From contig CALVYH010000005.1 of the NCBI GenBank assembly GCA_944372115.1, positions 11,812 to 75,811 of the forward strand: a stretch of 64,000 nt of DNA. The letters run 5' to 3'. A program made the position numbers and the translations under genes. Every line of letters starts with the position of its first letter. Within the stretch, counting starts at the first letter, position 1. Of the stretch, positions 1 to 22,888 are shown one piece after another. This DNA comes from an uncultured Bacilli bacterium. Lineage in GTDB: Bacteria; Bacillota_I; Bacilli_A; RFN20; CAG-826. Under the pieces are notes generated by a model, which saw nothing but the letters and a program-made list of their open reading frames with translations, had not been told where the DNA came from and did no database searches.

Positions 1-1
1 T

Positions 2-829
2 TATATTAACAAAGGATTTATTCGTTTTAGATTTAAAGAATTAAGATTTCATAAACACGAACTTAAAAGAATACTTCAAATTGGAATACCAAGTGGAATT
101 CATGGAGTTATCTTTTCTATTTCTAATGTTATTTTACAAACTACTGTAAATAGTTGGCCACCTGCTGTTGTTACAGCTAATACTGATGCAGCAAATATTG
201 AAAATTATACTTATACTGCAATGTATTCTATTTCTACAGCAACTCCAGCTTTTATAAGTGCTAATGTAGGTAGAGGATTTTATAAAAATATTAAAAAGAT
301 TGAAATAATTTCTCTTGTTACAGTAGTAATAGTAGGAATAGTTTTAGGATGCGCTTCACTAGCTTTTTCTCATCAATTATTACAAATTTATATGGGTGCG
401 AATTATGATAGCGAAGTAGTTAAGTATGCCATTGAAAGAATGACTGTAGTTTTACTTACATACTTTTTATGTGGATTAATGGATACTCAATGTGATATTT
501 TAAGAGGTTTAGGATATAGTTTTATTCCAACTATTTATTCTTTTGTATCTTGCTGTGTATTAAGAATTATTTGGAATTATTTTGTTTATTCTCCTATTGA
601 AGGGATGTGGAACCATTCTTTAGGTATTTTATATTTATGTTATCCAGTTTCTTGGATTATTGCTTTCCTTCTTGAATTTATTACGTTTTTCATCTTAAGA
701 AAAAGAGTAAAAGAAAAATGTGATAAAAATCTAATTGAATATAATAAAAAACATGGATTAGATAATGAAAATAATAAGTTAACTAATGAAAATAAAGAAA
801 AGTTAGTAGATTCAAAAGTAAGTATTTAG
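2..829 (+). CDS. MATE family efflux transporter, C-terminal part (5' end lies outside the window)
   Basis: The open frame runs from position 2 in frame with the 221 ORF. The product is hydrophobic and multi-helix, with MATE-like second-half motifs (ELKRILQIGIPSG, ISNVILQT, LRGLGYSFIP). The tail is K/E/N-rich. Confidence 0.7.
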   Translation, partial: YINKGFIRFRFKELRFHKHELKRILQIGIPSGIHGVIFSISNVILQTTVNSWPPAVVTANTDAANIENYTYTAMYSISTATPAFISANVGRGFYKNIKKIEIISLVTVVIVGIVLGCASLAFSHQLLQIYMGANYDSEVVKYAIERMTVVLLTYFLCGLMDTQCDILRGLGYSFIPTIYSFVSCCVLRIIWNYFVYSPIEGMWNHSLGILYLCYPVSWIIAFLLEFITFFILRKRVKEKCDKNLIEYNKKHGLDNENNKLTNENKEKLVDSKVSI

Positions 830-975
830 TAATTATCTAGTTAATAATATATAGTCATATTCCTCAACAAAATGGAAATATTATTAAATTTAGTTTAGTA
901 ATCTTTATAGATATAATTTTTTGATTTAAAATAAGTAAAGTTAATTTTGTAATTGACTAATTTTTATTATTTATT

Positions 976-2958
976 ATGAACATTTTATTTTTACTTATTT
1001 CATTAATTATTAGTGCTTTTTTCCTTTTTTTAGGTTTATTCTTTTTAAAAGTTAAATATGTTAAAAGTTTTGATGAAGATACTTTAATTTCATCAAATGA
1101 AAAGAATTATGCTTTATTTGATGTTGATAATAAATATAAAGAATATGTTAATTCTTATAAGATAATTAAAGAAGGTAATAATCGTTTTTTAGCATTAAAA
1201 TTAAAAGGTAATGTTAAATATATTAATTTTAATGTTGTATGTTATAAGAATGAAAAAGTATTAAAAATATTAAATATTAAAGATGTATTAAATAACTATA
1301 AAGAAGATTATATAGTTAAACTTCCTTTAAATGCTTCATCTTTTAAAATAGATATCATAGAAGTTAATGATATCTATTTTATAGAAAATGAAGATATTAA
1401 AAAGAGTGTTTATAAATATATTCTTTCTTCTTTATTTTTTAGTATAAGTGCTACATTAGCTTATTTTTTAATCTATTTAATTACACTTTCTTTTTCTCCT
1501 TCTTCTATATATGATTCATGGGATAAATTAATTGAGAGTGTATTTTATGTTCCTATTTTTTATATTTTAGGAGCAATATTATTTCTTTTAACATTTATTA
1601 TCTCTTTTTTAATTCTTTTCTTTTTAAATAAAGAAAAAAGATTTGCTTTTAAAGAAAACAAGAAAAAAGATGAAGAAGAAAGTAAAGAATTTAATATATA
1701 TAAATATTTAAAATTTAATGTTAAAACTAAAAAGGATAAAAAAGATAATAGTGAATATTTTATTATTAAATTAATTAAAAAAAGAGAGTTTATTAAAGGT
1801 GAAATTTTAATAAAAGCAATTGATATAAATAACGAACCTCTTTTATCTTTTCCTTATAAAATTGATAAACATTTTAAAAAGATTAACATTAAGAAAAATA
1901 AAAATATTAAAGAATTAAAGATTTCTTATAACACTCTTTATTTTAAAAAGTTTAGATATATTAATAACGAAGCAATTTATAATGAATATTTAAATAAAAA
2001 TGGTGTCAAATGTGAAACACTTCATATTAAAGGTGTTTTATATTCCATTCTTACTTTCGCGCTTATTTTTATTACCTCATTAGGAGCAAATTTTTATGCT
2101 TCTTATCAATTAAATATTTATAGAAATATCGAAAATTATTTAAATTATGAATTCATTAATGAAGAAAACGAAGAAGAAGGTATAAAAATTGTTGAATCAC
2201 CAATTAAATTTAATACTTTATATATTCCTAAAGAAATTGATGGATATAAAGTTGTTTCAATAGGAGAAGGTGCTTTTAAAAATAACGAATACATTAAAAA
2301 GGTTTATTTTTCTAATGAAATAGAAATTGAAAGTGAAGCCTTTTTAAATTGTTCTTCTTTAGAATATGTCGATTTATCTAAAGTTAACAACATTGGATTA
2401 TCTTCTTTTGAAAAAACTAGTTTAAAAGAAATTTATGTTGGCGAAAATTTAGATACAGTCAATTCGAAAGCATTTGCTGAAATTAAAACTTTAAAGAAAG
2501 TTACTTTAGATAATCCTGATTTAGCTCTTGGATTAAATGTTTTTAGAAACTCTGTTATAGACGGAGATTTAATTATTAATTACGAACCTATTGGTTTACA
2601 AAGAACCTCCTTTATAGGAATATCTTGCAATGAAGTTTATATTTATGATTATAGTAAGATTACTAAAGTAAATTATAATGTTTCATATTATTTAAAAAGA
2701 GACCATACTTATTTTTTAAGCGAATGTATCCATGATGATGTTTCTTTTATTGTTGATAAAAATGGAAAAATTATAAAAACAATGGATGTTGAAGTAAGTT
2801 CCACTTTTGAAGGAACTTGTATAGAAAAATCTTATACTGAATATTTATGTCATAGATGTGGAAATAAATATAAAGTCGAAGGTAAATTAAATTTCCAAAA
2901 TCATAACTTTGTAGATGGTTATTGTACTTGGTGTGGAAAAGCAGAAGATAGAAATTAA
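976..2958 (+). CDS. Polytopic membrane protein with a BspA-type leucine-rich repeat (LRR_5-like) ectodomain and a C-terminal CxxC...CxxC cysteine motif
   Basis: There are about 4 hydrophobic helices (aa 1-25, about 150-175, about 190-220, about 345-370). LRR_5-like repeats are visible (VVSIGEGAFKNNEYIKKVYFSNEIEIESEAFLNCSSLEYVDLS...IGLSSFEKTSLKEIYVG...VNSKAFAEIKTLKKVTL). The C-terminus reads TCIEKSYTEYLCHRCG...YCTWCGK. It is the first gene of a packed operon. Confidence 0.65.
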   Translation: MNILFLLISLIISAFFLFLGLFFLKVKYVKSFDEDTLISSNEKNYALFDVDNKYKEYVNSYKIIKEGNNRFLALKLKGNVKYINFNVVCYKNEKVLKILNIKDVLNNYKEDYIVKLPLNASSFKIDIIEVNDIYFIENEDIKKSVYKYILSSLFFSISATLAYFLIYLITLSFSPSSIYDSWDKLIESVFYVPIFYILGAILFLLTFIISFLILFFLNKEKRFAFKENKKKDEEESKEFNIYKYLKFNVKTKKDKKDNSEYFIIKLIKKREFIKGEILIKAIDINNEPLLSFPYKIDKHFKKINIKKNKNIKELKISYNTLYFKKFRYINNEAIYNEYLNKNGVKCETLHIKGVLYSILTFALIFITSLGANFYASYQLNIYRNIENYLNYEFINEENEEEGIKIVESPIKFNTLYIPKEIDGYKVVSIGEGAFKNNEYIKKVYFSNEIEIESEAFLNCSSLEYVDLSKVNNIGLSSFEKTSLKEIYVGENLDTVNSKAFAEIKTLKKVTLDNPDLALGLNVFRNSVIDGDLIINYEPIGLQRTSFIGISCNEVYIYDYSKITKVNYNVSYYLKRDHTYFLSECIHDDVSFIVDKNGKIIKTMDVEVSSTFEGTCIEKSYTEYLCHRCGNKYKVEGKLNFQNHNFVDGYCTWCGKAEDRN

Positions 2959-2971
2959 AGGAGCATTTATT

Positions 2972-4264
2972 ATGGTTTTAACTAGCACAGTGTCACAAAT
3001 TGTTCTATTAGTTGTTGCTACTATCGTTTTTTTGATATTAGCAGTTATTTCTTGTCTTATTCTTTATAAATATTTAAAAGAAAATAATACATTTATTATT
3101 AAAGGATCGAATAAAAAGAATAAAGAAATTTTAGATTTGAGTGAAGAAATCGGACGTGGAGAAGAAGCTGCTAATAATGATAGCGAAAGATTTTCTAAAC
3201 TTTTAATTTTAGATAGTAAAAAAAGAGCTCAAATTGAATATGATAATGTAGTTTCTTTAAAAACTTTTTCAGAAGATTTTAGAAATTTCTGTGCTTCAAA
3301 CTTAAAACTTTATTACACAATTGACGATATTCGCTCTTTTATTGCTAATTTAGCTACTTCAAAAATTATGATTCTTCAAGGTATGAGTGGTACTGGTAAA
3401 ACTTCTATCGCTTTAGCTTTTGAAAAATATATTAATAACGTTCTTGATCCAATTGCAATTCAACCAATGTGGAAAGAAAGAAGCGATTTAATCGGTTATT
3501 TTAATGAATTTACTAAGAAATTTAATGAAACACCTTTATTAGAAGAATTATATGACGCAACTTTTAACGATAAAATCTATATTATCGTTTTAGATGAAGT
3601 TAATATTGCTCGTGTTGAATATTATTTTGCTGAATTTTTATCTCTTTTAGAATATCCAAACATTGAACAAAGAACATTAGAAATTACTAATGATGTTTGG
3701 GATAGAGATCCTAGAAAATTACAAAAAGGGAGACTTCAAATCGGGGAGAATGTTTATTTTTTAGGAACAGCAAATAATGATGAATCTACATTTGCTATTT
3801 CTGATAAAGTTTATGATAGAGCGATGGTTTTAAATTTAGAGAAAAAAGCTGAAAGTTTTGAAGGAAATAAAGTAAATCGATGTCAAATTTCTAATACTCA
3901 ATTTTTAAAACTTGCTAATGAAGCTGAAGAATCGTTTAAAAAATCAAGTGATTATGATGAACTTCAAAACTGGATTAATAAAATTAATGAACTTATCGTC
4001 GAATCTTTTGGAATAAGTTTTGGTAATCGTATGAGCGGGCAAATATTAAGATATGTTCCAGTTTATGTTGCTTGTGGCGGAAGTAAAGAAGAAGCTTTTG
4101 ATGATTTCGTTGCAAAAAAGATTTTAAGAAAACTTGAAGGAAAGGATTTTTTAAAACTTTCAACTGCTGTAAAACCATTTATCGATAAACTTAATTTGGT
4201 TTTTGGGGTTGATTCAATGAAAAAATGTAAAGAATACGTTTCTAAATATAATATTGTTGGTTAG
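2972..4264 (+). CDS. Membrane-anchored McrB-like AAA+ (AAA_5 type) NTPase, paralog 1
   Basis: I place the start at ATG 2972, preceded by AAAGGAG at 2957-2963; the track ORF starts at 2915. There is one N-terminal TM helix (VSQIVLLVVATIVFLILAVISCLILY). Walker A is GMSGTGKT (3380-3403) and Walker B is IIVLDEVN. The segment LDEVNIARVEYYFAEFLSLLE resembles McrB DEINRAN..FGE..LLE, and FLGTANNDEST resembles McrB (I/L)GTMNTADRS. Confidence 0.7.
   Translation: MVLTSTVSQIVLLVVATIVFLILAVISCLILYKYLKENNTFIIKGSNKKNKEILDLSEEIGRGEEAANNDSERFSKLLILDSKKRAQIEYDNVVSLKTFSEDFRNFCASNLKLYYTIDDIRSFIANLATSKIMILQGMSGTGKTSIALAFEKYINNVLDPIAIQPMWKERSDLIGYFNEFTKKFNETPLLEELYDATFNDKIYIIVLDEVNIARVEYYFAEFLSLLEYPNIEQRTLEITNDVWDRDPRKLQKGRLQIGENVYFLGTANNDESTFAISDKVYDRAMVLNLEKKAESFEGNKVNRCQISNTQFLKLANEAEESFKKSSDYDELQNWINKINELIVESFGISFGNRMSGQILRYVPVYVACGGSKEEAFDDFVAKKILRKLEGKDFLKLSTAVKPFIDKLNLVFGVDSMKKCKEYVSKYNIVG
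3368..3405 (+). repeat. 38-nt stretch identical to 6264-6301 (Walker A region of the two McrB-like paralogs)
   Basis: atgattcttcaaggtatgagtggtactggtaaaacttc is present at both sites. A second identical 41-nt run (aatgtttattttttaggaacagcaaataatgatgaatctac) lies at 3749-3789 and 6645-6685. Confidence 0.9.
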
Positions 4265-4267
4265 TTT

Positions 4268-5788
4268 ATGAATAGAAGTGGTAGAAAGTATAATCAATAT
4301 AAAGGATTAAAACGATATTTAGATGTTGTTACAAAAAATCCAAAATTAGAACAACTTGGAGATTTAGTTAAAAATTCGCCATCTCTTTTTAATGAGATTA
4401 ATACTTTTGAAAACTCTATAAAAATTGAATCTGATTGGATTGAAAAAATCGAATTTTATCTTCCTTTTATTTCAAGCGCTATTTTAGAAGGAAGAAGATT
4501 TATTTTAAATACAGGCGAAACTGTTGATATTGAAAAAATTAAAAGAGTTTCTAAAGATTCTATCGTTGATTTAGCTAAACATTCAAATAACATTCGAAAA
4601 TTTAATGAAGTAAGTCAAGATGTTGAACCTAGAAAGCTTTTGATAGTTGAAAAAAATGATGATTTTGGATTGTACGAAAATAAATTTTTAGTTTATTTAC
4701 TTTTACTTTTAAAATCATTCGTTTCTATGCGTTTTGATAAAATCAAAGAAGCTCAATCAATATTAGAAATTAAAACAACCTTAAAAAATAACGTTACTAT
4801 TTTTAAAGATTCAATTAGTTATGATATTTCAATTGATGATATTAGACATACTGATTTAAAGGTCGAAGAAAACGATGTTAATAAAGATTTAATTAATAGA
4901 CTCAATGCAATTACTTCAACAATTGAACAATTTTTTAAAAGTGATTTAATTTCAATTGTTGCAAAACTTCCTTTAATTAGTGAACCAATTCAAAAAAATA
5001 ACGTCTTAAAAAATGATCCTAATTTTGTTAAATGTTATGAACTTTATGAATATTTAAAAAACTATAATAAAGATGGTTTTGAAATTGAAAAAAGTGAAAT
5101 TAAATTAGATAAATTGAGCGATTCATATATTAATTTCTTTAAATTTATTCCAACAATTTTAACTTTCCTTTCTTATTCTGAATCAAAAGATTTATTCCCA
5201 CTTTTAGAAGAAGAATATATAAATGAAAAAGAAGATATTAGAAAATTAAATCATGAAACATTAATTAATAAGATTTCTGAAATTTTTGCTAGTGAATCTT
5301 TAAATAAAGAAGAAATAACAAATATCATTCTTAAACTTGAAGATGAATTAAAGAATAAAGATGAATTATTAAATAAAACAAAAGAAGATGATTTGAATAA
5401 GTTAAATGAAGTAAAGAAAGATTTAAATAGAAAAATTGAAACATTAACTTATAACTATGAAGATTTAAATAATCGTTATGAAGAAGATACAAAACAATTA
5501 AATAATGAAGTTATAAAGTTAAAAGATGAAAAAGAAGCTTTAAAAAAAGAATATGAAGAAGAAATAAATAAACTTAAAGCAATAAATAGAGCACTTAATA
5601 TTCGTATTAATCCTGAATTTGAAAAAGAAAAGAACGATGAAGTTTATTTTAATGAACTAGAAAAGGATTTTGATGTTTTTACTAATTACTTCAAAGATAA
5701 ATGGAAAGAAGTTAAGAAAGTGATTAAAAAAGAGAAGAAAAAAGAAATTCGTGAATTATTAAAAAAGAAGGAGAAGTTAAATGGTTAA
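4268..5788 (+). CDS. Coiled-coil protein with a McrC/DUF2357-like N-terminal region and no recognisable nuclease domain
   Basis: It lies between the two McrB-like genes, 3 nt after one and overlapping the next by 8 nt. The motif EPRKLLIVEKNDDFGLYENKFLVYLLLLL resembles the (D/T)x(Y)ENRFLK signature of McrC/DUF2357 partners. The C-terminal 190 aa or so is a K/E/N/L heptad-like coiled coil (LEDELKNKDELLNKTKEDDLNKLNEVKKDLNRKIETL...). No PD-(D/E)xK-like block was seen by eye. Confidence 0.45.
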   Translation: MNRSGRKYNQYKGLKRYLDVVTKNPKLEQLGDLVKNSPSLFNEINTFENSIKIESDWIEKIEFYLPFISSAILEGRRFILNTGETVDIEKIKRVSKDSIVDLAKHSNNIRKFNEVSQDVEPRKLLIVEKNDDFGLYENKFLVYLLLLLKSFVSMRFDKIKEAQSILEIKTTLKNNVTIFKDSISYDISIDDIRHTDLKVEENDVNKDLINRLNAITSTIEQFFKSDLISIVAKLPLISEPIQKNNVLKNDPNFVKCYELYEYLKNYNKDGFEIEKSEIKLDKLSDSYINFFKFIPTILTFLSYSESKDLFPLLEEEYINEKEDIRKLNHETLINKISEIFASESLNKEEITNIILKLEDELKNKDELLNKTKEDDLNKLNEVKKDLNRKIETLTYNYEDLNNRYEEDTKQLNNEVIKLKDEKEALKKEYEEEINKLKAINRALNIRINPEFEKEKNDEVYFNELEKDFDVFTNYFKDKWKEVKKVIKKEKKKEIRELLKKKEKLNG

Positions 5789-7157
5789 TAGAAAATTAAT
5801 CGATCAAATTTGTGCTATATTGATGGTCGTTGATTTAATTCTTGGACTATTCTTTTTATCATTCCTTTTAGCATTTACTTTAAGCGATGGAGGAGGTTTT
5901 ATTTTAACTAATCCTTTAGTTTATATAGTAATTGTTATGCTTTTTATTATTCCTTCTTGTTATGTTGTTTATTATCTTTTTACTTTAAAAAGCGATGCTG
6001 AAGAAGAGTTTATTTTTAACAGAGAATCTTATTTGAAGGTTAAAAATTTAACTCATAAAGACAGTGAAGATAAAAATGCATACCGTTTTTCTAAACTTTA
6101 TGATTTAGATAATGAAAAAAGAGAAGAAATTGTTTTTGATAAAATTACTTCTTTAAGCACTTTTTGTAATGAATTTAGATATTATTGTGCTGAAAAGTTA
6201 AATTTATATTATGATATCGAAGACATTAGAGCGTTTATATCAAATTTAGGTGTTTCTAAACTTATGATTCTTCAAGGTATGAGTGGTACTGGTAAAACTT
6301 CAATCGCTTTAGCTTTTGAAAAATTTATTGGTAATGTTTTAGAACCAGTGGCTATTCAACCAATGTGGAAAGAAAGAAGTGATTTAGTTGGATATTTTAA
6401 TGAATTTACTAAGAAATTTAACGAAACTTTGCTTTTAGAAGAATTATATAAATCTAATTTCGACGATAAGATTTATATAATTATTTTAGACGAAGTTAAT
6501 ATTGCTAGAATTGAATATTATTTTGCTGAATTTCTTTCTCTTTTAGAATATCCAGATGAAGATAGAAGAAAACTTGAAATTACAAATGATGTTTGGATCA
6601 ATGACCCAAGAATGTTAAAAGAAGGCAAATTATTAATTAAAGATAATGTTTATTTTTTAGGAACAGCAAATAATGATGAATCTACCTTTGCTATTTCAGA
6701 TAAAGTTTATGACCGTTCAATGGTTTTAAATTTAAATAAAAAAGCCACACCATTTAAGGGAGAAAAAGTTAAAGAAAGAAAGATTTCTAACACTGATTTT
6801 AAAAATATTTGTGATGAAAAAATAAAAGAATTTACCGTAAGTGATGATTATAAAGTTGTAATGAAGTGGATTAATATTATTGATGAGTTATTAAATCAAA
6901 ATTTCTCAATTAATTTTGGTAATCGTATGTTAAATCAAATTTTAAAATATGTTCCATTATATGTTGAATGCGGAGGAAGTAAAGAAGAAGCTTTTGATGA
7001 TTTTGTTTCTAAAAAGATTTTAAGAAAATTAGAATCAAAAGATTTTTTAAGACTTGGACCTGCAATTAATAAATTTTTAAATGAATTAGATGAATATTAT
7101 GGTAAAGACTCAATGCCTTTATCTAGAGAATATTTGAAGAAATTTGTTCAATTTTAA
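5781..7157 (+). CDS. Membrane-anchored McrB-like AAA+ (AAA_5 type) NTPase, paralog 2
   Basis: There are two N-terminal TM helices (ICAILMVVDLILGLFFLSFLLAF and LVYIVIVMLFIIPSCYVVYYLF). Walker A is GMSGTGKT (6276-6299) and Walker B is IIILDEVN, followed by FLGTANNDEST. By eye, roughly two-thirds to three-quarters of residues match 2972-4264 over the ATPase region. Confidence 0.7.
   Translation: MVNRKLIDQICAILMVVDLILGLFFLSFLLAFTLSDGGGFILTNPLVYIVIVMLFIIPSCYVVYYLFTLKSDAEEEFIFNRESYLKVKNLTHKDSEDKNAYRFSKLYDLDNEKREEIVFDKITSLSTFCNEFRYYCAEKLNLYYDIEDIRAFISNLGVSKLMILQGMSGTGKTSIALAFEKFIGNVLEPVAIQPMWKERSDLVGYFNEFTKKFNETLLLEELYKSNFDDKIYIIILDEVNIARIEYYFAEFLSLLEYPDEDRRKLEITNDVWINDPRMLKEGKLLIKDNVYFLGTANNDESTFAISDKVYDRSMVLNLNKKATPFKGEKVKERKISNTDFKNICDEKIKEFTVSDDYKVVMKWINIIDELLNQNFSINFGNRMLNQILKYVPLYVECGGSKEEAFDDFVSKKILRKLESKDFLRLGPAINKFLNELDEYYGKDSMPLSREYLKKFVQF
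6264..6301 (+). repeat. Partner copy of the 38-nt identical stretch at 3368-3405
   Basis: Direct comparison of the two regions. Confidence 0.9.
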
Positions 7158-7178
7158 TTTTTTAGGAGGAAAAGAAAG

Positions 7179-9323
7179 ATGAAACCAAAAACAAAAATAC
7201 TAGTCTTAATAGTTACTGTTATTGCTTTTTGTAGTATTGTCGTAGCTACTCTTTTTGGTTTAAATACTCTTGGTGTTTTAAGACTTTTTGAAACTCCTAT
7301 TTCTATTAAAATTGAAGACTATACTACTACATATAATGCTGAAAAAGTTGAAGCGAATTTTCCTTATCAAATAACAAGTGGCGGTTTAATTTCTGGTGAT
7401 TCCATAGAAGTTACTACAAAAGAAGAAATAATAAATGCAGGAACCTATCAAAATGTTTTTGAAGTAAAAATTATTGATAGAAACGGACAAAATGTTTCAT
7501 CTTCATATGATATAAATATTGACATGGGTGAAATTGAAGTTTCGCCTATTGAAATAACATTACAAAGTGCAACCGCAGTTTTTCCAAATGATGGTGAAGT
7601 TCATAGTGATTTTGGTGTTTCTATTATTAAAGGTAGCCTTATAAATAACGATTATTTTGACTTTAGTAATTTTAAAGAATTTACTGTTAAAGGTTATCAT
7701 GAAAATAAATTTACTGCTAAAGTTTTTACAGAAGAAAATGAAGATGTAACATTTAATTATGATATAACTTATCAATATGGTTATATCATAATTACAGATC
7801 TTTCAGAAAGTGGCGAGAGTGGACCCTCTAGCGAAATTAATTATCCAGAAAAGGTTACTTCCGAAAGTGATATTCAGGGAGCTCCGGGAGCATTGAAAGA
7901 AGGAGATGGTGGTGAATATAAAGCTGGCGGAGAAAAAACTTTTGAAACTATTTTTAATTATACCCCTACAGTCGCTGGATCATCGTTTTTTAAAATCTCA
8001 AGCGATGGTGATTATACAAAAAAAGGTTGGAAAACTGCGCCAAAATATAAGTCAAAATATGGCGTAAATCCTCAAGAATTTATTACTGATTTATTAAGAA
8101 ATCATAAGGAAAGATATTTTTCTGGTTCATTAGAATATGTAAGTATTACTCAAAGAGACATGGATATTGTGCCTTGGCACCCTATTCTTAAATATAAACA
8201 AGTAACAGATACTTATTCAATTTCATCTGATTTAAAAAGTAAAACAATAAATACAGAAGGCTATATGTTTGATTATATAAAAGATTATAGTCTTTTAGAA
8301 AATACAACTTTTTCAAGTGAAGATTATGTTAACGAAGAAAAAGAATATAGAAAATTTGTTTATGATAATTATTTACAAATACCTGATTCTACTAAAACAT
8401 CGATTAATAATTATATAAATAAATATAATTTAAATACTGGGAATCTTTTATCAACTATAAATAAAATTATTGCCCATTTTAAGACGTACTTTTTATATGA
8501 TTATGAGGGATTTAAAGATTACTTAGAGGATGATGTCCTTGTCTCTTTTTTAGAAAAATATAAAGTAGGAGATTGTTCTAGATTTTCCGGTTCTGGGGTA
8601 TTAATGTTAAGAGCCATGGGTTATCCTGCTAGAAGAGTTGGCGGATATGGAGTTCCGGGTTATGCGGTAGGTAAAACTTATTCAGTCAATCCTTGGGCTG
8701 GCCATGCTATAGCTGAAGTTTATATTGATGGGAAAGGTTGGGTAGGCATTGAATTTACTGTTGCCGATTTAGCTCCTACTTGCGTCTATCCTCCTTCATG
8801 GGATGTTAGCGATAATGGAGAAGCTTATGATTTAATTCTTTCAACCGATGATATTGTTGAAGAATATAATGGCTCACCTGTTTCTAGTAATCAAAAATAT
8901 CTTTTAACTGGAGAGTTAAAAGATGGTGATTCTTTAGTAATTAACAATAATAACACTCTTTATAATTGTGGATATATTGATAATATTCCTAGTTATTTGA
9001 TTGTTGATTCTAATTTTAATGATGTTACGAGTAAATATAAGATTAAAGAAGATTTTGGTAAAATTGTAATGAATCAAAAAGATTTAACATTGGAAACAGA
9101 TAATGCGACTTTTTCTTATGATGGAAATGAGCACAATCCTACTTATAAGATAAGTGGGTTAGTAAATGGCGATAAAGTTGATAGCGTTGTAATTTATCCT
9201 GCAAAAGAGTTAGGAACTCATCTTTCAGTTGTAATAATAAATTCTATTAAAAATGCATCAGGAGAAGATGTTACAGCAAATTATAATATTACATATGTTT
9301 TTGGACATATAAGGGTGGAATAA
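7179..9323 (+). CDS. Membrane-anchored transglutaminase-like (Cys-His-Glu) protein flanked by MBG (YGX-type)-like repeats
   Basis: RBS AGGAGG lies upstream. The N-terminal signal anchor is ILVLIVTVIAFCSIVVATLFGL. The transglutaminase core is GDCSRFSGSGVLMLRAMGYPARRVGGYG (Cys466, 8574-8576), GHAIAEVYIDGKGW (His509, 8703-8705) and GIEFT (Glu525, 8751-8753). Repeats follow the pattern Y(D/N)G..GD..aGtYqN..NYdItY.yG.I.I. Confidence 0.75.
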   Translation: MKPKTKILVLIVTVIAFCSIVVATLFGLNTLGVLRLFETPISIKIEDYTTTYNAEKVEANFPYQITSGGLISGDSIEVTTKEEIINAGTYQNVFEVKIIDRNGQNVSSSYDINIDMGEIEVSPIEITLQSATAVFPNDGEVHSDFGVSIIKGSLINNDYFDFSNFKEFTVKGYHENKFTAKVFTEENEDVTFNYDITYQYGYIIITDLSESGESGPSSEINYPEKVTSESDIQGAPGALKEGDGGEYKAGGEKTFETIFNYTPTVAGSSFFKISSDGDYTKKGWKTAPKYKSKYGVNPQEFITDLLRNHKERYFSGSLEYVSITQRDMDIVPWHPILKYKQVTDTYSISSDLKSKTINTEGYMFDYIKDYSLLENTTFSSEDYVNEEKEYRKFVYDNYLQIPDSTKTSINNYINKYNLNTGNLLSTINKIIAHFKTYFLYDYEGFKDYLEDDVLVSFLEKYKVGDCSRFSGSGVLMLRAMGYPARRVGGYGVPGYAVGKTYSVNPWAGHAIAEVYIDGKGWVGIEFTVADLAPTCVYPPSWDVSDNGEAYDLILSTDDIVEEYNGSPVSSNQKYLLTGELKDGDSLVINNNNTLYNCGYIDNIPSYLIVDSNFNDVTSKYKIKEDFGKIVMNQKDLTLETDNATFSYDGNEHNPTYKISGLVNGDKVDSVVIYPAKELGTHLSVVIINSIKNASGEDVTANYNITYVFGHIRVE

Positions 9324-9326
9324 AAT

Positions 9327-12300
9327 ATGCTAACCGAAGTATATAAAAATAAAATTAAAAGATATTTAGCTTTTTATAAATTCATTTATAGATTTAGAAT
9401 CTTACTTATAATTTTAGCGTGTGTAATTGTAGGCGTTACATCTACATTATTATCATTAAAAGGTTTAGTAATCGATACATTGAAAATTAGCGATGTTCAA
9501 TATGGTGAAAAATTGACTTATTCATCAACAGGTCTTTTTGATAATTATATTCATTATGAATTTAAAAAAGATGGTTCTAATGAATGGAGTCAAAATGTTC
9601 CTAAATTAGTCGGAAAATATCAAATTCGTGGTGTTTCAAAAAATATTTTTGGAGGATTTTATTATGGAAAGCCTCAAAATTTTGAAATTAATCCAAAAAT
9701 TTGTGATGTAACTGTTTCTGAAAAAGTATCAACATATGGCGATATACCAACTATGAATTTTAATCTTTTGAGTGGAGATGAGATTGTTGATTTAAATTTT
9801 ACTTATAATAGTTATGGCGATAATTATGCAAACGTAAGTTTTGATAAAGATAGTGTTGTTGTAGTTAATAAAAGTGGTGAAGACGTTTCTTATTGCTACG
9901 ATTTTAATTTTGAAAATTCTTATGATTTAACATTAAAACCTAGAAATATTGTAGTTAAAGCAAGCGGTATTTATGAATACGACGGTGAAACTCATAATGT
10001 CGAAACTGTTGATTTAAAAAATGGAACTTTAGCTAATGGCGATAAAATTAGTTATGAAAATAGTGAAGGATTTGTTGATGGTGGAGTTCATGCTTCAAGG
10101 CCAAAAATAACAATTAAAGATAGACAAAATCGAGATGTTACTAAATTTTATGATATAGATTACAGTCACGATTCTACGATTGTAATAAATCCTAGAAAAA
10201 TCACTATAAAAACAGGTGATTTTTCTAAAACATATGATGGCAAGATTTATGAAGGAATTGTTTCTTTTTCTATAACTGAAGGAAGTTTGATTAATGGTGA
10301 TAGAATTGAATTAACTTATCCTAAATATATCAACGCAGGAAATTACCAAAATAAACCAACTTATACAATTTTTGATAAAGATGGTAAAAATAAGAGTTCA
10401 AATTATGCAGTTACTTTTGATTGTGGAAAATATATTATTAACCCAATTAAACTTACTTTGAATTTTAAGTATTTCGATAAAGTATATTCTGGGTGGATTG
10501 GGGATAATATGAATTTTTCTTATACAGGGAATCTTTTAGAAGGTCATGAAATTAGATTTTATGAAACATCTTCAGAAGCTATTAATACGTTGCACGTTGG
10601 AAAGCACGATAATTACTTAGGTGCTAAAGTATTTGATGCATCTGGAAAAGACGTGAGCATTAATTATGAAATAACTATTAAATCAAATTCGTACGAGGTT
10701 ACAAAAAGATCGATTACAATTAAAGCTCAAAGTTATACTTTTACTTATGATGGTACAAAAAAATATTGCCCTTTCTTTGATGTTGAAGGCGAATTAGGAG
10801 AACCAGATGAAATTTTGATTACGAAACTTACGACTGCCAGAAACGTAGGCGTATATGATAATATTTTAAAATTTGAAATAAAAAATAACTTATATGAAAC
10901 AGATGTAACAAATGATTATGACATTACTTTTATACCTGGAAAAATTACTATTTTAGAGGAAGATAAATCGCCTATAGATTTAGGTTTACCTGATAGTAAT
11001 ATTATGGGAGATGTTTTTCTAGGTCCTAATATGGGTAGTCTTGTCATGAAGTATACCGTTAAAAGTGGAAGTGCTGGTCAATTTTTAAGATCTATTAGTA
11101 CTGGTGTTTATGATAAAGACAGTTTTTTAATGGGGCCAAATTACACGCCTAGATATGGAGTAAATGTTATGGAATTTATTCCAGAATTATTAAAAAACAA
11201 GATGAAACCATTTGAAGGTGTATTAGATTACTATAGATTTGATAATAGAGGATTTGATTATGTTCCATATTATTCAGTGCTTTCAAAAACACAGAAATCA
11301 GATAATTATGTAATTGATTCAGATTTAAAAACTAAAAAAATCAATATAAAAGGTTACAATTTTGACTATGTAAGAGACCACGCCTTAATTGATAACGCAA
11401 CTTTTACGAATCAAGATTTTAAAAACGAAGAACGTGTATACTCAGATTTTGTTAAACAAAATTATCGTTCTTTACCTACTAATTTATTTAACATACTTGC
11501 CGACTATATTAGAGAAAATAATTTGGAAGGAAGAAATTTATTAGATTCTTTAAATAGAATTATAAAATTCTTTTCTGAAACTGGCGGATTTATTTATGAT
11601 ATGGGCGATTATGGAAATAGTACATCTGAAGAACCTATTATAAATTTCTTAACAAAGACAAGAACAGGAGTATGTAATATGTTTGCATCCTCTGGAGCAG
11701 CTTTATTAAGAGTTATGGGTTATCCAACAAGAGTTGTTTCTGGATATGGATTCTCAAGTGGTTCTAATGTAGGCGGTGTTTATAATGTGACTGGACCTGG
11801 ACATGCTTTATGTGAAGTATATGTTGATGGGAAAGGTTGGGTAACAGTTGAATTTACTGTTGCTCCTGTTGCAGAAGACTTATATTTGCCTCCTAAAGAT
11901 TCAGCTGGTGGTGATCCATTAGAAGACTCTTCGCTAGATCAAGATAATATAAATTATGATGAGATTCAGACTGGAGGTGCTGAAATAGATCCTAATGGTC
12001 AACAAGATGAAGAAGTAGATAATCCTGGACAAAGCGGAGATTCTGGAGAAAGCGATGATCCAACTGGCGATCCTCAACCAGGAGAAACTGAAGGAGAAGA
12101 AAAAGAGGATTACGATTTATACATATACGGAGATAGCGGAAGTTTTGAATATGATGGCAAGCCACATTCGGTCGATACGTATAATTTAGAAGGCGAGTTA
12201 AAAGATGGACATACGCTAGAAATATCTGGTGTTCCTTCTATAACAAAGGTTGGAATTATCAATAATAATTTTTCATATAATATTAAAGATGAATTTGGCA

Positions 12301-12617
12301 ATATTGTAACTGATCAATATAAGATTTATTTCTCTAAAGGTACAGTTTCAGTAACTAAAAGGATCTTAAAGATAAAAACAACTACAACTTCAACATCATT
12401 GTCTAGTTTAAGTTCTTTCTCTAATATTATTGAATCAATTGATGGATTAGCTCCGGGGGATAAAATTGTTGATAGAATAGATTTAATTTTAACCTCAACA
12501 AGTAAAGGAACATATCAAAACGTAGTAATAGTTTCTAAAATAGTTAATGAAAAAGGAGAGGATGTTACTTCTTGTTATGCTATAAACTATGATTATGGAA
12601 CAATAACATTAAATTAA
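9327..12617 (+). CDS. Large membrane-anchored transglutaminase-like protein with many MBG-like repeats and an acidic spacer (paralog of 7179-9323)
   Basis: The TM helix is ILLIILACVIVGVTSTLLSL. About 7 N-terminal and 2 C-terminal MBG-like repeats are visible (YEYDGETH...GD...NAGNYQN...NYAVTFDCGKYIINP). The core is GVCNMFASSGAALLRVMGYPTRVVSGYG (Cys783, 11673-11675), GHALCEVYVDGKGW (His826, 11802-11804) and VEFT (Glu842, 11850-11852). A D/E/G/P-rich spacer lies at about 11890-12135. Confidence 0.75.
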   Translation: MLTEVYKNKIKRYLAFYKFIYRFRILLIILACVIVGVTSTLLSLKGLVIDTLKISDVQYGEKLTYSSTGLFDNYIHYEFKKDGSNEWSQNVPKLVGKYQIRGVSKNIFGGFYYGKPQNFEINPKICDVTVSEKVSTYGDIPTMNFNLLSGDEIVDLNFTYNSYGDNYANVSFDKDSVVVVNKSGEDVSYCYDFNFENSYDLTLKPRNIVVKASGIYEYDGETHNVETVDLKNGTLANGDKISYENSEGFVDGGVHASRPKITIKDRQNRDVTKFYDIDYSHDSTIVINPRKITIKTGDFSKTYDGKIYEGIVSFSITEGSLINGDRIELTYPKYINAGNYQNKPTYTIFDKDGKNKSSNYAVTFDCGKYIINPIKLTLNFKYFDKVYSGWIGDNMNFSYTGNLLEGHEIRFYETSSEAINTLHVGKHDNYLGAKVFDASGKDVSINYEITIKSNSYEVTKRSITIKAQSYTFTYDGTKKYCPFFDVEGELGEPDEILITKLTTARNVGVYDNILKFEIKNNLYETDVTNDYDITFIPGKITILEEDKSPIDLGLPDSNIMGDVFLGPNMGSLVMKYTVKSGSAGQFLRSISTGVYDKDSFLMGPNYTPRYGVNVMEFIPELLKNKMKPFEGVLDYYRFDNRGFDYVPYYSVLSKTQKSDNYVIDSDLKTKKINIKGYNFDYVRDHALIDNATFTNQDFKNEERVYSDFVKQNYRSLPTNLFNILADYIRENNLEGRNLLDSLNRIIKFFSETGGFIYDMGDYGNSTSEEPIINFLTKTRTGVCNMFASSGAALLRVMGYPTRVVSGYGFSSGSNVGGVYNVTGPGHALCEVYVDGKGWVTVEFTVAPVAEDLYLPPKDSAGGDPLEDSSLDQDNINYDEIQTGGAEIDPNGQQDEEVDNPGQSGDSGESDDPTGDPQPGETEGEEKEDYDLYIYGDSGSFEYDGKPHSVDTYNLEGELKDGHTLEISGVPSITKVGIINNNFSYNIKDEFGNIVTDQYKIYFSKGTVSVTKRILKIKTTTTSTSLSSLSSFSNIIESIDGLAPGDKIVDRIDLILTSTSKGTYQNVVIVSKIVNEKGEDVTSCYAINYDYGTITLN

Positions 12618-12647
12618 ACTTATTGAAATAATACCCTCCATATAAAC

Positions 12648-12694
12648 TCATGCTTAATTATTTATCTTTAAATAGTAAGCATGACTTTTATTTT
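12648..12694 (+). terminator. Rho-independent terminator of the six-gene operon
   Basis: A 9-bp stem tcatgctta (12648-12656) / taagcatga (12676-12684) is followed by cttttatttt. Confidence 0.65.
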
Positions 12695-12742
12695 CTAGTT
12701 GAAAATAAAGTTCAAATAAGATTTAATAATTATCGGTTTGCT

Positions 12743-12823
12743 AGAGTGTCTATTATTAATATTAATAAAAATAAAATATTAATAATTCCCATGACTAACC
12801 ACTCTTAAAACAAAACAGGGGGA
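12743..12823 (+). promoter_or_regulatory. Candidate preQ1 riboswitch (class I-like P1 and A-rich tail) with an embedded AT-rich hairpin, upstream of queT
   Basis: P1 is AGAGUG (12743-12748) / CACUCU (12800-12805). The 3' part CUAACCACUCUUAAAACAAAACAGGGGG resembles known preQ1-I aptamers (B. subtilis ...CUACACCCUCUAUAAAAAACUAAGG; T. tengcongensis ...CCCCAGUUAACAAAACAAGG). The tail runs into the SD GGGGG (12818-12822), 13 nt before the ATG. A 12-bp hairpin is inserted at 12752-12763 / 12775-12786. Confidence 0.5.
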
Positions 12824-12835
12824 TATATTTTAATT

Positions 12836-13444
12836 ATGGAAAAAGTTAGTTCCAACGAAAAAAAGACTTTTCGTGAATCTTCAAAGTCTTTTTTTAAAGA
12901 TTTCTTTAGTGTAAAAATGATTACACTAAATGCATTTGTTGCTGCATTATATGCTGTATTAACTATTGTTTGTTATCCACTTTCTTATAGTTATATGCAA
13001 CTTAGATTTTCAGAATTATTAAATCTTTTAGTATTTTTTAATCCTTCATATACTTTAGGATTAACAATTGGTTGTTTATTATCAAATTTAATGTCTTCAG
13101 CAGGAATATTTGATATTACTTTAGGTACATTAGCAACATTTATTTCTTGCTTAATTATGATTTTATTTTCTAAATTAACTAAGAATTTATTTTTTAGTGG
13201 GTTAATTCCTTGTATTGTTAATGCTATTACAGTTCCTTTTATTATTTATTTAGCTTCAAGTGGAACAAGTGATGCCTTTAATTTAGAAGCTCCAATTTTC
13301 TTTATTATGGGAGGATGGACTTTTTTAGGTGAATTTATTGCAATAAATATTATTGGTTATAGTGTTTTTATGCTCTTGGCTAAAAAATATAAAGGATTTC
13401 AACAATTATTTAACGCAAATTATAATTTAGATTTTAAATGGTAA
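12836..13444 (+). CDS. queT: Queuosine precursor transporter QueT (ECF S-component-like)
   Basis: It is a 202-aa, roughly 5-6 TM protein with a QueT-like N-terminus (MITLNAFVAALYAVLTIVCYPLSYSYMQLRFSELLNLL). It sits directly upstream of tgt-queA-queH and downstream of the preQ1-like leader. Confidence 0.8.
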   Translation: MEKVSSNEKKTFRESSKSFFKDFFSVKMITLNAFVAALYAVLTIVCYPLSYSYMQLRFSELLNLLVFFNPSYTLGLTIGCLLSNLMSSAGIFDITLGTLATFISCLIMILFSKLTKNLFFSGLIPCIVNAITVPFIIYLASSGTSDAFNLEAPIFFIMGGWTFLGEFIAINIIGYSVFMLLAKKYKGFQQLFNANYNLDFKW

Positions 13445-13479
13445 AAATTTACCGATTAAGAAAATGGATAAATTTAATT

Positions 13480-13504
13480 GCTACCAAAATAATGGTAGCT
13501 TTTA
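13480..13504 (+). terminator. Terminator after queT
   Basis: A 7-bp stem gctacca / tggtagc with a 6-nt loop is followed by tttt. Confidence 0.55.
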
Positions 13505-13604
13505 AATTGCTTTTAAATAAAACATATTTAACTTTAAATGAAAGTATTATTAAATAAAAATCTAAAATAAATAAAATAATTACATTTAAAGCGAATATTT
13601 TTTT

Positions 13605-13657
13605 AAGCTCGTAGCATTCTTGAATATAAATATTCAGGGTGGGTTGAGCTTTTTTTA
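13605..13657 (+). terminator. Second hairpin plus T-run upstream of tgt (terminator or attenuator-like)
   Basis: The outer stem is aagctc / gagctt and the inner stem is tgaatat / atattca, followed by ttttttt. Its function is unknown. Confidence 0.3.
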
Positions 13658-13693
13658 TAAAATAAGCCCATCTTATTTTATATATATAATTAA

Positions 13694-14890
<1,197 letters not shown>

Positions 14891-14893
14891 TAT

Positions 14894-15919
14894 ATGGATA
14901 TCGAACTTTTTAATTACGATTTACCAGAAGAATTAATTGCGCAATCTCCTTCAAAAGAAAGAGATCATTGTAGGTTAATGGTTATTGATAAAACTAAAAA
15001 AACTTATGGAGATAAGCATTTTTATGACATTATAAATTATTTAAAACCTGGCGATGTTTTAGTTAGAAATAACACAAAAGTTATTCCAGCTAGAATTTTT
15101 GGAGTTAAAGAAGTTACTGGTGCTCATGTTGAAGTTTTACTTTTAAAAGATTTAGGTAATGATACTTATGAATGTTTATTAGGCAATGCTAAAGCTATAA
15201 AAGTAGGAAGCGTTATCGATTTTAATAACAAAATGAAAGCAACATGTTTAGAAGTGAAAGATGAAGGAATTAGAATTTTAAAATTTGAATATCAAGGAAT
15301 TTTCTTTGAAATATTAGATGAAATTGGAAATATGCCTCTTCCTCCTTATATTCATGAAAAAATTAAAGATAAGAATGACTATCAAACAGTTTATGCTAAA
15401 GTTGAAGGAAGTGCAGCAGCTCCTACAGCAGGTTTTCATTTTACAAATGAACTTTTTAATAAAATTAAAGAAATGGGAATCGAAGTTTATGATGTTACTT
15501 TAAATATTGGTTTAGGAACTTTTAGACCAGTAAAGGTGAAAGATACAAATGATCATCATATGCATAGCGAATATTATCAAATTAGTGAAAATGTTGCTTC
15601 TTCTTTAAATAAAGCAAAAAAAGAAGGAAGAAGAATTATTGCTATTGGTACAACTGTTGTAAGAACTTTAGAATCTAATTTTAATAAATTTAATGAATTT
15701 AAAGCAGATAAAGACAATACTTCTATTTTTATTTCACCAGGCTATCAATATAAAGCAATTGATTGTTTAATCACTAATTTTCATCTTCCTAAATCCACTT
15801 TAATTATGTTAGTTAGTGCTTTTATGGGAAGAGAATTTACTTTAGAGTGTTATAAACATGCAGTAGATGAAAAATATCGTTTCTTCTCGTTTGGAGATTC
15901 GATGTTTATTCATTCTTAA
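14894..15919 (+). CDS. queA: S-adenosylmethionine:tRNA ribosyltransferase-isomerase
   Basis: LFNYDLPEELIAQSP, MPLPPYI, AAPTAGFHFT and GTTVVRTLES are present. The product is 341 aa. Confidence 0.97.
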   Translation: MDIELFNYDLPEELIAQSPSKERDHCRLMVIDKTKKTYGDKHFYDIINYLKPGDVLVRNNTKVIPARIFGVKEVTGAHVEVLLLKDLGNDTYECLLGNAKAIKVGSVIDFNNKMKATCLEVKDEGIRILKFEYQGIFFEILDEIGNMPLPPYIHEKIKDKNDYQTVYAKVEGSAAAPTAGFHFTNELFNKIKEMGIEVYDVTLNIGLGTFRPVKVKDTNDHHMHSEYYQISENVASSLNKAKKEGRRIIAIGTTVVRTLESNFNKFNEFKADKDNTSIFISPGYQYKAIDCLITNFHLPKSTLIMLVSAFMGREFTLECYKHAVDEKYRFFSFGDSMFIHS

Positions 15920-15939
15920 AATAAGTACTTTTAAAATAT

Positions 15940-18113: not shown

Positions 18114-18806
18114 ATGAAACAAATCATTGGCCGTAAAATTGGTATGACTCAAGTTTACGCTGAAGATGGCACAATGTATGCTGTTACAGTTGTTGAAGTA
18201 TTACCAAATGTTGTCACATTAAAGAAAACTGTTGAAAAAGATGGCTACGAAGCAATTCAAGTTGGCTACGAAGACAAACTTAAAAACATTAATAAATGTG
18301 AAAAAGGATTATTTGAAAAAATCAATGTCACTCCAAAGAAAGATTTATTCGAACTTAAGGGTGATGAAATGATGAAATATGAAGTCGGTAACGAAATTAA
18401 AGCCGACCTCTTCCAAGCAGGAGATGTCGTTGACGTTATCGGTACTTCAAAAGGTAGAGGATATGCTGGTGTCATTAAAAGATGGGGACACACAATCGGA
18501 CCAAAAGGTCATGGTTCAGGATATCATAGAGGACAAGGTTCCTTCGCTAATAACGGTAGATGTAACAACCGTGTTATCCCAGGAAAGAAAATGTCCGGTC
18601 ATATGGGAAATCAATCAGCTACAGTCTTAAACTTAAGAGTTGTTAAAACTGATGCAGAAAAGAATTACATCTTAATTAGAGGCGGAGTACCAGGACCAAA
18701 AAAAGGCTTAATCAAAATTAGAAGTGCTGTTAAAACAAATGCAAAATCTATGACAATTAAACCTTTAATTGACAGAAGCAAAAAAGAAGAAGCAACCGCA
18801 GAATAA
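18114..18806 (+). CDS. rplC: 50S ribosomal protein L3
   Basis: IGRKIGMTQVY..., GTSKGRGYAGVIKRW. Operon position fits. Confidence 0.97.
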   Translation: MKQIIGRKIGMTQVYAEDGTMYAVTVVEVLPNVVTLKKTVEKDGYEAIQVGYEDKLKNINKCEKGLFEKINVTPKKDLFELKGDEMMKYEVGNEIKADLFQAGDVVDVIGTSKGRGYAGVIKRWGHTIGPKGHGSGYHRGQGSFANNGRCNNRVIPGKKMSGHMGNQSATVLNLRVVKTDAEKNYILIRGGVPGPKKGLIKIRSAVKTNAKSMTIKPLIDRSKKEEATAE

Positions 18807-18829
18807 TTTAAAGAAAGGAGAAAATTAAC

Positions 18830-19453: not shown

Positions 19454-19454
19454 T

Positions 19455-19790: not shown

Positions 19791-19815
19791 TCTAACTTAT
19801 ATATAGGAGAAAATT

Positions 19816-20649: not shown

Positions 20650-20667
20650 TAAAGGAGGAAATTAGAG

Positions 20668-20973: not shown

Positions 20974-20995
20974 TATAGGATGGAGATAGAAAATT

Positions 20996-21538: not shown

Positions 21539-21557
21539 TAGGAAGGAGGAATAAACG

Positions 21558-22250: not shown

Positions 22251-22252
22251 CT

Positions 22253-22666: not shown

Positions 22667-22673
22667 TTAACTT

Positions 22674-22871: not shown

Positions 22872-22888
22872 GAGGTATAAAAAGAATT

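Follow-up and report, generated by a model that had tools for sequence, protein, structure and literature searches.

The 64,000-nucleotide (nt) stretch considered here, called the window throughout, is part of contig CALVYH010000005.1 (assembly GCA_944372115.1) of an uncultured Bacilli bacterium. Close to its start, six + strand genes are packed into window positions 976-12617, according to the open reading frame (ORF) listing. These genes encode two McrB-family ATPases with N-terminal transmembrane (TM) helices, a partner protein related to the N-terminal domain of McrC but without the nuclease, two transglutaminase-type surface proteins and a membrane protein with leucine-rich repeats (LRR). 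To judge from sequence comparisons, the operon is a real conserved system that is widespread in gut Firmicutes. Its ORFs and signals are as follows (aa, amino acids).

976-2958, + strand: four-helix membrane protein with LRR_5; TM helices aa 3-21, 153-171, 197-215 and 351-369; predicted cytoplasmic beta-rich modules aa 22-152 and 216-350; external BspA-type LRR_5 region aa ~425-526
2972-4264, + strand: McrB-family AAA+ NTPase, paralogue 1; one N-terminal TM helix, cytoplasmic ATPase domain; Walker A nt 3380-3406, Walker B nt 3590-3604, NND(E) nt 3773-3784
4268-5788, + strand: nuclease-less McrC-like partner, no TM helix; DUF2357 region aa ~1-310 with YENK motif nt 4673-4687; coiled coil aa ~310-447; conserved basic C-terminal helix aa 458-505 (nt ~5690-5719)
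5781-7157, + strand: McrB-family AAA+ NTPase, paralogue 2; N-terminal hairpin of two TM helices, cytoplasmic ATPase domain; Walker A nt 6276-6302, Walker B nt 6486-6500, NND(E) nt 6669-6680
7179-9323, + strand: surface protein with N-terminal signal anchor; YDG/MBG-like repeats on either side of a transglutaminase core; triad Cys466 (nt 8574-8576), His509 (nt 8703-8705), Glu525 (nt 8751-8753)
9327-12617, + strand: large surface protein; cytoplasmic tail of ~24 aa, one TM helix, about five YDG/MBG-like repeats, then transglutaminase core, acidic linker and more repeats; triad Cys783 (nt 11673-11675), His826 (nt 11802-11804), Glu842 (nt 11850-11852)
12648-12698, + strand: intrinsic terminator closing the operon; hairpin 12648-12687, then the T-run CTTTTATTTTC
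904-932, + strand: candidate promoter TTTATA-17-TAAAAT with 9/12 consensus matches, in the AT-rich 146-nt gap upstream of gene 1

The spacing of the genes is tight, with intergenic distances of 13, 3, -8, 21 and 3 nt in order. The same values had been given in an earlier reading of this DNA that used the letters and their translations only (the sequence-only reading), and they are reproduced with the start of gene 2 at 2972. The mechanical ORF list gives 2915 for this gene; the start at 2972 is preferred because of the AAAGGAG Shine-Dalgarno sequence 8 nt upstream and because the gene called on an identical metagenome contig in the public data, 430 aa long, begins there. A GAAGGAG sequence precedes the ATG at 5781, and the gene starting there overlaps the 3' end of the preceding gene by 8 nt. 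Also in agreement with the sequence-only reading, the only convincing terminator lies after 12617. Its hairpin has a folding energy of -15.2 kcal/mol (z = -5.08) and none of 200 shuffled sequences folded equally well. Within the operon, the sole + strand terminator-like site found by a consensus scan is a weak 7-bp stem at 2550-2566, within shuffle expectation (2 sites observed in the whole region, 2.4 expected). The candidate promoter at 904-932 is weak, as AT-rich DNA of this kind shows no excess of such sites over shuffled sequence; the window is AT-rich, with 20-30% G+C in region 1-16000. N-terminal hydrophobic or TM helices were found by a hydropathy scan in five of the six products, the coiled-coil protein being the exception, just as had been claimed. 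On the positive-inside rule, the ATPase domains are predicted to lie inside the cell and the transglutaminase and LRR domains outside.

Proteins encoded by the operon

The two ATPases match Pfam AAA_5 (E = 3.2e-8 for paralogue 1 and 4.7e-7 for paralogue 2) and, weakly, the McrB model of NCBIfam. When a profile of the ATPase family was searched against all PDB sequences, McrB chains were the sole match (E = 2e-5), and hhalign pairs the family with E. coli McrB at 96.8% probability (E = 3e-10, 155 columns). The McrB-like character noticed in the sequence-only reading is therefore confirmed, and membership of another AAA+ clade, which that reading had named as one case that would overturn it, finds no support, since both the PDB profile search and hhalign single out McrB. 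The proteins are 430-460 aa long and consist of the TM helix or helices, a charged linker of ~70 aa in which no coiled coil is evident, and the AAA domain. No domain match indicative of a DNA reader was obtained in the N-terminal part; alignment and hydropathy scan agree that TM helices occupy its place in both paralogues, as had been proposed. Alignment of 15 diverse relatives showed that the motifs GMSGTGKTS (Walker A), LDE(V/M)N (Walker B) and GTANND(E/D)STFAISDKVYDR are invariant. The residues N268-N269-D270, invariably followed by E or D, align with NTAD of E. coli McrB. According to Bell et al. 2024 (PMC11090510), the variant 'NxD followed by E or D' defines a major branch of McrB GTPases; because NND followed by E/D fits this definition, we assign both ATPases, by their motifs and profiles, to the NxD branch of the McrB family, with intact Walker A and B motifs. 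The window paralogues share 76% DNA identity over 985 nt, and between Bacilli and Clostridia the ATPase is 44-51% identical, with long invariant blocks.

The partner protein encoded between the two ATPases matches Pfam DUF2357, the McrC N-terminal domain, with E = 7.8e-5 and 22.5 bits, the cut-off being 23.3 bits; 34 of 67 orthologues from other genomes match this family as well (best E = 1e-7). With hhalign, the partner family aligns over 190 columns (97.2%, E = 4e-11) to a Rhodoferax plasmid protein that is annotated 'DUF2357 domain-containing' and sits after an ATPase of the CoCoNuT type (coiled-coil nuclease tandems, PMC11090510). The motifs YENR and TNVL..D..F are common to both. A Deinococcus plasmid counterpart with DUF2357 aligns at 90.5%. 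AlphaFold models (scores for predicted local distance difference, pLDDT, of 85 and 88) contain an alpha/beta N-terminal domain of ~310 residues, followed by helices 310-341 and 347-447. Beyond residue ~195 the model is helical with one strand and then passes into the coiled coil, with no nuclease-like sheet, and no nuclease family was matched by any of the 67 members. In the C-terminal helix, W479 and K483 are conserved. A hidden Markov model search of the family against PDB sequences returned generic coiled-coil proteins only, which match the C-terminal half. Taken by profile and model, the partner is an McrC N-terminal domain with about 190 residues of coiled coil and a C-terminal helix and without a nuclease, which is the replacement that had been suggested before.

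Both surface proteins match Transglut_core, with E = 1.8e-14 for the 7179 product and 2.4e-13 for the 9327 product, and are predicted to have a single membrane anchor with the N-terminus inside. Among 63 cores of the family the catalytic triad is largely kept (Cys in 52, His in 58, Glu/Asp in 61). Profile searches thus reproduced the domain calls of the sequence-only reading (LRR_5, AAA_5 twice, DUF2357, and Transglut_core twice with Cys-His-Glu), while its MBG repeats were recovered in part. In the window proteins they are weak: the MBG_2 match of the 7179 product is sub-threshold (E = 0.008) and the flanking repeats of ~85 residues are weak MBG_2 matches. At the family level they are supported by the repeat motif K.YDG...G.L..G....G...N....D..G.DVT..Y.I..G.L.V, which is of the YDG/MBG type, and by Pfam matches among 30 relatives (Transglut_core 22, AgI_II_C2 19, YDG 6, MBG 4, MBG_2 3, TgpA_N 1). 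In the antigen I/II adhesins of streptococci, AgI_II_C2 is the C-terminal domain. Its best match has E = 2e-19 and it occurs, for example, in relatives at L085:14358-19961 and L086:14626-18891 (locus and position); neither window surface protein matches it at E ≤ 0.01. The internal repeats of the 9327 product are visible in tblastn and in the family consensus. Both window proteins end in a repeat and have no C-terminal sorting signal, and across loci the surface proteins vary strongly in length and repeat number. The tail of the 9327 product (window 9327-9400, ~22-24 aa) carries a motif that is conserved in about 50 orthologous loci across classes, in the forms LT/LY..Y..K.K....FY......RF-R and LY..Y..K..K.A.......RF-R. 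We consider this tail a candidate docking site for a cytoplasmic complex.

The 976 product matches LRR_5 with E = 2.1e-15. Its C-terminus (nt 2725-2937) is rich in cysteine (CIHDD ... CHRCG ... CTWCG). It resembles a zinc ribbon, although an extracellular position is predicted for it. None of the six operon proteins has a specific family in NCBIfam.

Gene order in other genomes

A scan of one genome per species yielded at least 587 confirmed stretches. The best 80 loci are found in Clostridia (Christensenellaceae, Lachnospiraceae, Oscillospiraceae and others), in Bacilli including Candidatus Onthovivens, and in Anaeroplasmataceae and Haloplasmataceae. For the ATPase family, more than 8000 clusters at 90% identity were scored, with E ≤ 2e-116 for all 120 listed, and among clusters formed at 50% identity, 864 match the N-terminal domain of the partner at E ≤ 1e-10.

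An ATPase gene lies immediately upstream of the coiled-coil gene in 53 of 56 informative loci and immediately downstream of it in 52 of 56, and the last ATPase gene is directly followed by a transglutaminase/MBG gene in 55 of 59. Gene order is kept in more than 50 independent species, which argues for a conserved operon rather than a chance juxtaposition. The genetic coupling of the ATPase-coiled coil-ATPase triad to the transglutaminase genes, as asserted in the sequence-only reading, holds with these counts. That reading had also considered that the genes might never be syntenic elsewhere; the neighbourhood comparison showed that the order recurs across species-representative genomes of several orders.

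A protein of at least 1000 aa is encoded immediately before the first ATPase in 31 of 52 informative loci. In Clostridia this protein of 1000-1290 aa contains Glyco_hydro_3_C and Fn3-like domains together with an McrB-like domain (L064:6290-9631, L031:2880-6074), and in the aligned members this McrB-like domain has lost Walker A, Walker B and NxD. A membrane hairpin is predicted between the Fn3-like and McrB-like parts of the L064 protein; none is apparent in that of L031. Lachnospiraceae instead have a shorter protein with a TM helix and a dead ATPase domain (L058:5619-6815, L067:8581-9750). The lineage of the window has neither the large nor the short protein. Further upstream, a subset of Clostridial loci encodes a giant LRR_5 protein and a conserved membrane protein of ~230 aa (13 loci), the latter without a Pfam match. 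The first module of the 976 product is homologous to this separate Clostridial membrane protein (BLASTP E = 4e-7), and by this homology and the Clostridial gene order the LRR gene of the window is a fusion of two genes which are neighbours in Clostridia. The LRR protein as such is lineage-variable.

The ATPase genes were compared with each other in five loci from Clostridia, Anaeroplasmataceae and Haloplasmataceae (L064, 10001-11098 versus 13373-14488; L014, L020, L031 and L085). In all five the pair shares ~1.1 kb of DNA that is 98.5-100% identical; the isolate genome L031 gives 98.5%, and the assembly consensus of metagenomes may inflate the values of 100%. The members of such a pair differ only in the first ~100 codons, which encode the anchors, whereas the same ATPases share ~50% protein identity between species. 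This looks like ongoing gene conversion. It suggests a need for a single ATPase that comes with two different membrane anchors, which would be expected if the paralogues co-assemble. In L026, L033 and L082, a single ATPase gene is followed directly by transglutaminase/MBG genes, with no coiled-coil gene and no second ATPase. This arrangement could be due to deletion by recombination between near-identical ATPase repeats, or to assembly collapse.

The genes flanking the operon are housekeeping genes that depend on the lineage: MatE/MurJ and queT-tgt-queA in the window, and elsewhere genes for ferritin, phosphoribosyl pyrophosphate synthetase or a peptide ABC transporter. No integrases or insertion sequence (IS) elements were found among the flanks of the window locus and of the related loci with annotated neighbours. 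A location on mobile elements was considered and rejected, since phage and plasmid collections contain only distant relatives of the CoCoNuT type.

Related systems and proposed function

McrB normally pairs with the PD-(D/E)xK nuclease McrC in type IV restriction. Like the McrBC systems of E. coli and Thermococcus gammatolerans, the operon encodes an McrB-family ATPase and a partner with the McrC N-terminal domain back to back. It differs from them in having TM helices where the DNA reader would be, in the absence of the PD-(D/E)xK nuclease, and in the signature NxD instead of NxxD. Moreover, two ATPase paralogues flank the partner, and the operon continues into genes for surface proteins.

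Among McrBC derivatives, the CoCoNuT systems share with the operon the NxD GTPase branch, a DUF2357 partner and coiled coils, and some of their McrC homologues are also nuclease-less. In CoCoNuTs, however, the coiled coil is fused to the GTPase, whereas in the operon it is part of the McrC-like partner. CoCoNuTs also keep a nuclease nearby (HEPN or other), and their nuclease-less McrC homologues always adjoin another nuclease (PMC11090510); no nuclease or HEPN protein was found in the operon or among its conserved neighbours. The CoCoNuT proteins are soluble and the examples are located on plasmids, where the ATPase is followed by DUF2357 or nuclease proteins and IS elements flank two of the four examples examined. 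The operon, in contrast, is chromosomal, membrane-anchored and tied to surface proteins.

The second group that resembles the operon is CoCoPALM, which is little more than named, in one paragraph of the same paper (PMC11090510), as a large and abundant NxD McrBC clade with membrane-anchored GTPases and coiled-coil McrC homologues. The stated partners are pilus assembly factors of the signal-peptidase family, and the GTPase is fused to an FtsB-like part with a TM helix and a coiled coil. The NxD GTPase with a membrane-spanning N-terminus, the coiled coil on the McrC homologue, the link to surface structures and the fact that these are not nucleases are all features which the operon shares. Judged by the features stated for CoCoPALM, the two would differ on three points. 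First, a signal-peptidase-family gene is not conserved near the operon: no Peptidase_S24/S26 was found among the Pfam-annotated neighbours of four loci, and no further conserved family within ±10 kb of 84 loci. Second, the operon ATPases show TM helices only and no similarity to FtsB (hhalign of the ATPase family with E. coli FtsB gave 0.2%, with a single-sequence template of low sensitivity). Third, transglutaminase, MBG and LRR partners are not mentioned for CoCoPALM (PMC11090510). Literature searches on PDC-M26 (a candidate system of the PADLOC database, see below), on CoCoPALM follow-up work and on McrB with transglutaminase gave nothing beyond this paper and its preprint. As far as found, the composition is undescribed, with CoCoNuT and CoCoPALM as the nearest known systems and neither matching by its stated features, and by its gene content the operon is a new variant within the NxD McrBC-derived systems. 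The sequence-only reading likewise knew of no such system.

Membrane transglutaminases are classically paired with ATPases of the MoxR type, and the comparison with MoxR-DUF58/VWA-TgpA operons that had been drawn earlier stands as an analogy of logic, an AAA+ ATPase being encoded with a membrane-anchored transglutaminase-fold protein. It does not extend to the components. The ATPase of the operon is McrB-type and not MoxR (AAA_3), and its transglutaminases have a single N-terminal anchor and adhesin-type repeats. Assignment of the ATPases to MoxR was rejected because the profiles single out McrB and no VWA/DUF58 partner occurs in the window or in related loci.

For an McrB protein in a non-defence, cell-envelope-related role there is a precedent in Firmicutes, the exapted PcdA of S. 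aureus (PMC10602043). Both PcdA and the operon ATPases would represent Firmicutes McrB-family proteins that left restriction. PcdA, however, keeps EVE readers, has degenerate NTPase motifs and no McrC-type partner, and is soluble, whereas the operon ATPases are membrane-anchored, with intact motifs and a retained partner.

The reading that we favour, and to which we give an even chance, is that a GTPase of the McrBC type, exapted and tethered to the membrane, serves to organise or remodel a surface complex of adhesins and transglutaminases. It is supported by the McrB identity of the ATPases, the McrC N-terminal domain without nuclease, the gene packing, the synteny, the conservation and the housekeeping setting, and further by the conserved transglutaminase triad, the AgI_II_C2, YDG and MBG domains and the PcdA precedent. 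Physical coupling of the ATPases to the surface proteins is suggested by the topology, the conserved cytoplasmic tail, the LRR fusion, the dead McrB-like paralogue and the near-identical ATPase pair.

McrB forms GTP-dependent hexameric rings. Hydrolysis is stimulated when the N-terminal domain of McrC inserts into such a ring, and dimers of McrC link one ring to another. The McrBC complexes that show the ring, the McrC plug and the bridging by dimers were reportedly solved by Nirwan (2019) and Niu (2020), as cited in PMC11090510 and PMC10602043. We infer the ring formation, the McrC-like stimulation, the physical coupling and the direction of control in the following scheme. By analogy with McrB, the two ATPase paralogues, which differ mainly in their anchors, would form hexameric rings at the inner face of the membrane, held under it by 6 to 12 helices. 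The McrC-like N-terminal domain would plug into the ring and stimulate hydrolysis of nucleoside triphosphate (NTP), probably GTP, while the long coiled coil and C-terminal helix, in place of the nuclease dimer, would pair or space the rings. The clients would be the co-encoded membrane proteins, i.e. the transglutaminase/MBG and LRR proteins and, in Clostridia, the giant adhesin-like proteins. These are the partners that the motor has at its disposal; each is anchored in the membrane, exposes large adhesin-like or enzymatic domains to the outside and has small conserved parts in the cytoplasm. Contact with the motor would be made through their TM helices, the conserved cytoplasmic tail and the cytoplasmic beta modules. 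In this way the nucleotide cycle may control, from inside, how a complex of adhesive and enzymatic proteins on the outside assembles, clusters or changes conformation.

Textbooks present McrBC as a motor of DNA restriction; here the pair is kept without DNA reader and nuclease and is tied to the membrane and to adhesin-like surface enzymes. If the coupling is real, a restriction motor would have been recruited to cell-envelope biology for a second time after staphylococcal PcdA, and in a much more widespread form. It would also provide a first context for common 'hypothetical' genes of gut Clostridia, Christensenellaceae, Lachnospiraceae and reduced-genome Bacilli, including those for large LRR and MBG surface proteins which probably mediate contact with host, mucus or other cells. 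Furthermore, the role of the membrane-linked branch of McrBC, of which there is hardly any description, would gain a concrete example that is open to testing.

Several observations weigh against a surface role of this kind. No case is known to us in which McrB rings act on membrane proteins. Outside the family, the ATPases are closest to plasmid-borne CoCoNuT-type proteins of 650-800 aa (30-37% identity overall; E ~1e-55 at 33-37% identity), and both ATPases match the PADLOC defence candidate PDC-M26A (E = 3e-44 for paralogue 1 and 1.2e-36 for paralogue 2). On the side of the partner, Foldseek searches of the PDB with the full-length model and the N-terminal domain gave no hit with E ≤ 0.001 (TM-scores ~0.1), and hhalign of the coiled-coil family with E. 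coli McrC, which is not a close DUF2357 representative, gave nothing, so that the McrC link is carried by sequence profiles (DUF2357). The 'housekeeping' character of the operon is an impression from its flanks and from sequence conservation.

A bolder form of the favoured reading, which we put forward tentatively and regard as rather unlikely, is that the operon encodes an unrecognised and widespread NTP-powered surface organelle. A restriction motor, made up of McrB rings and the nuclease-less coiled-coil McrC, would have been rebuilt into a membrane machine, and giant transmembrane adhesin/transglutaminase proteins would be driven or gated by it mechanically. The gut Firmicutes with this organelle would include the wall-less Anaeroplasmataceae and Haloplasmataceae and RF39-like lineages. 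Its logic would resemble inside-out integrin activation, or Mycoplasma gliding with an internal motor and surface 'legs'.

It is unlikely, in our judgement, that the operon is an anti-phage or conflict system derived from McrBC/CoCoNuT immunity. In such a system, invaders would be detected or held off at the envelope by the LRR and MBG proteins of the surface, and the membrane GTPase complex would transduce or power a response, or the transglutaminases would cross-link or cleave incoming particles. The plasmid relatives and the PDC-M26A matches just mentioned point in this direction, the McrBC family is overwhelmingly defensive (PMC11090510), and the variation of the surface proteins in length and repeat number is as expected under diversifying pressure. 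However, the PDC-M26A match is confined to the GTPase part (positions ~311-433 of the 724-position model), none of the other PDC-M26 component models in PADLOC is matched by the operon proteins, and the partner matches no PADLOC model at all. No nuclease, HEPN protein or other intracellular effector is present in the operon or conserved within 10 kb; nuclease-less CoCoNuT McrC homologues adjoin another nuclease without exception (PMC11090510). The conservation of the ATPases is far above that usual for defence genes, and the loci lie amid housekeeping genes without hallmarks of mobile elements. Of the two roles that the sequence-only reading had envisaged, the remodelling of a surface complex thus fits the evidence better than membrane-associated defence, and both functional suggestions remain speculative.

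A machine for the assembly of a covalently cross-linked surface fibre or layer, akin to the 'pilus assembly' of CoCoPALM, appears similarly improbable. Here, the transglutaminases would polymerise or anchor MBG and antigen I/II-like proteins by isopeptide bonds and the McrBC-like complex would give energy or timing. The membrane GTPases, coiled-coil McrC homologues and pilus-assembly link of the CoCoPALM clade (PMC11090510) are compatible with this, as are the conserved Cys-His-Glu/Asp triad, the lack of a C-terminal sorting signal in the window proteins, which end in a repeat, and AgI_II_C2, a domain that 19 of 30 relatives carry and that is typical of Gram-positive adhesins stabilised by isopeptide bonds. 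On the other hand, the surface proteins retain their N-terminal anchors, which argues against release into a fibre, and the system is present in wall-less lineages too. A signal-peptidase-family gene is not conserved in more than 80 neighbourhoods, and the ATPase N-terminus is a TM helix with neither an evident coiled coil nor detectable similarity to FtsB. Finally, a chance juxtaposition, or ATPases from another AAA+ clade with known partners such as those of MoxR-TgpA, is hardly credible: AAA_5 is a broad Pfam family, one of 30 relatives matches TgpA_N and MoxR-type ATPases are the classical companions of membrane transglutaminases, but the gene order is kept across species, the profiles single out McrB and the McrC N-terminal domain, and a VWA/DUF58 partner is missing.

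Neighbouring genes

Upstream, the opposite strand of the same contig carries a gene for an AAA_15/AAA_21 ATPase, accompanied by two small genes, ~4 kb before the operon (L001:1337-2668, before the start of the window), with peptidase and MurJ/MatE genes in between. ATPases of the AAA_15/AAA_21 type occur in defence systems. Downstream, the operon is followed by a queT-tgt-queA cluster for queuosine salvage (window 12700-15919). In the 218-nt leader between the operon and queT, Rfam detected no preQ1 or other riboswitch, even at E ≤ 1. At window 18114-32605 there is a long series of short same-strand ORFs with a G+C fraction of 0.32-0.35, distinctly above the 0.20-0.30 around the operon, and a strong skew of A over T, which looks like a ribosomal-protein gene cluster.

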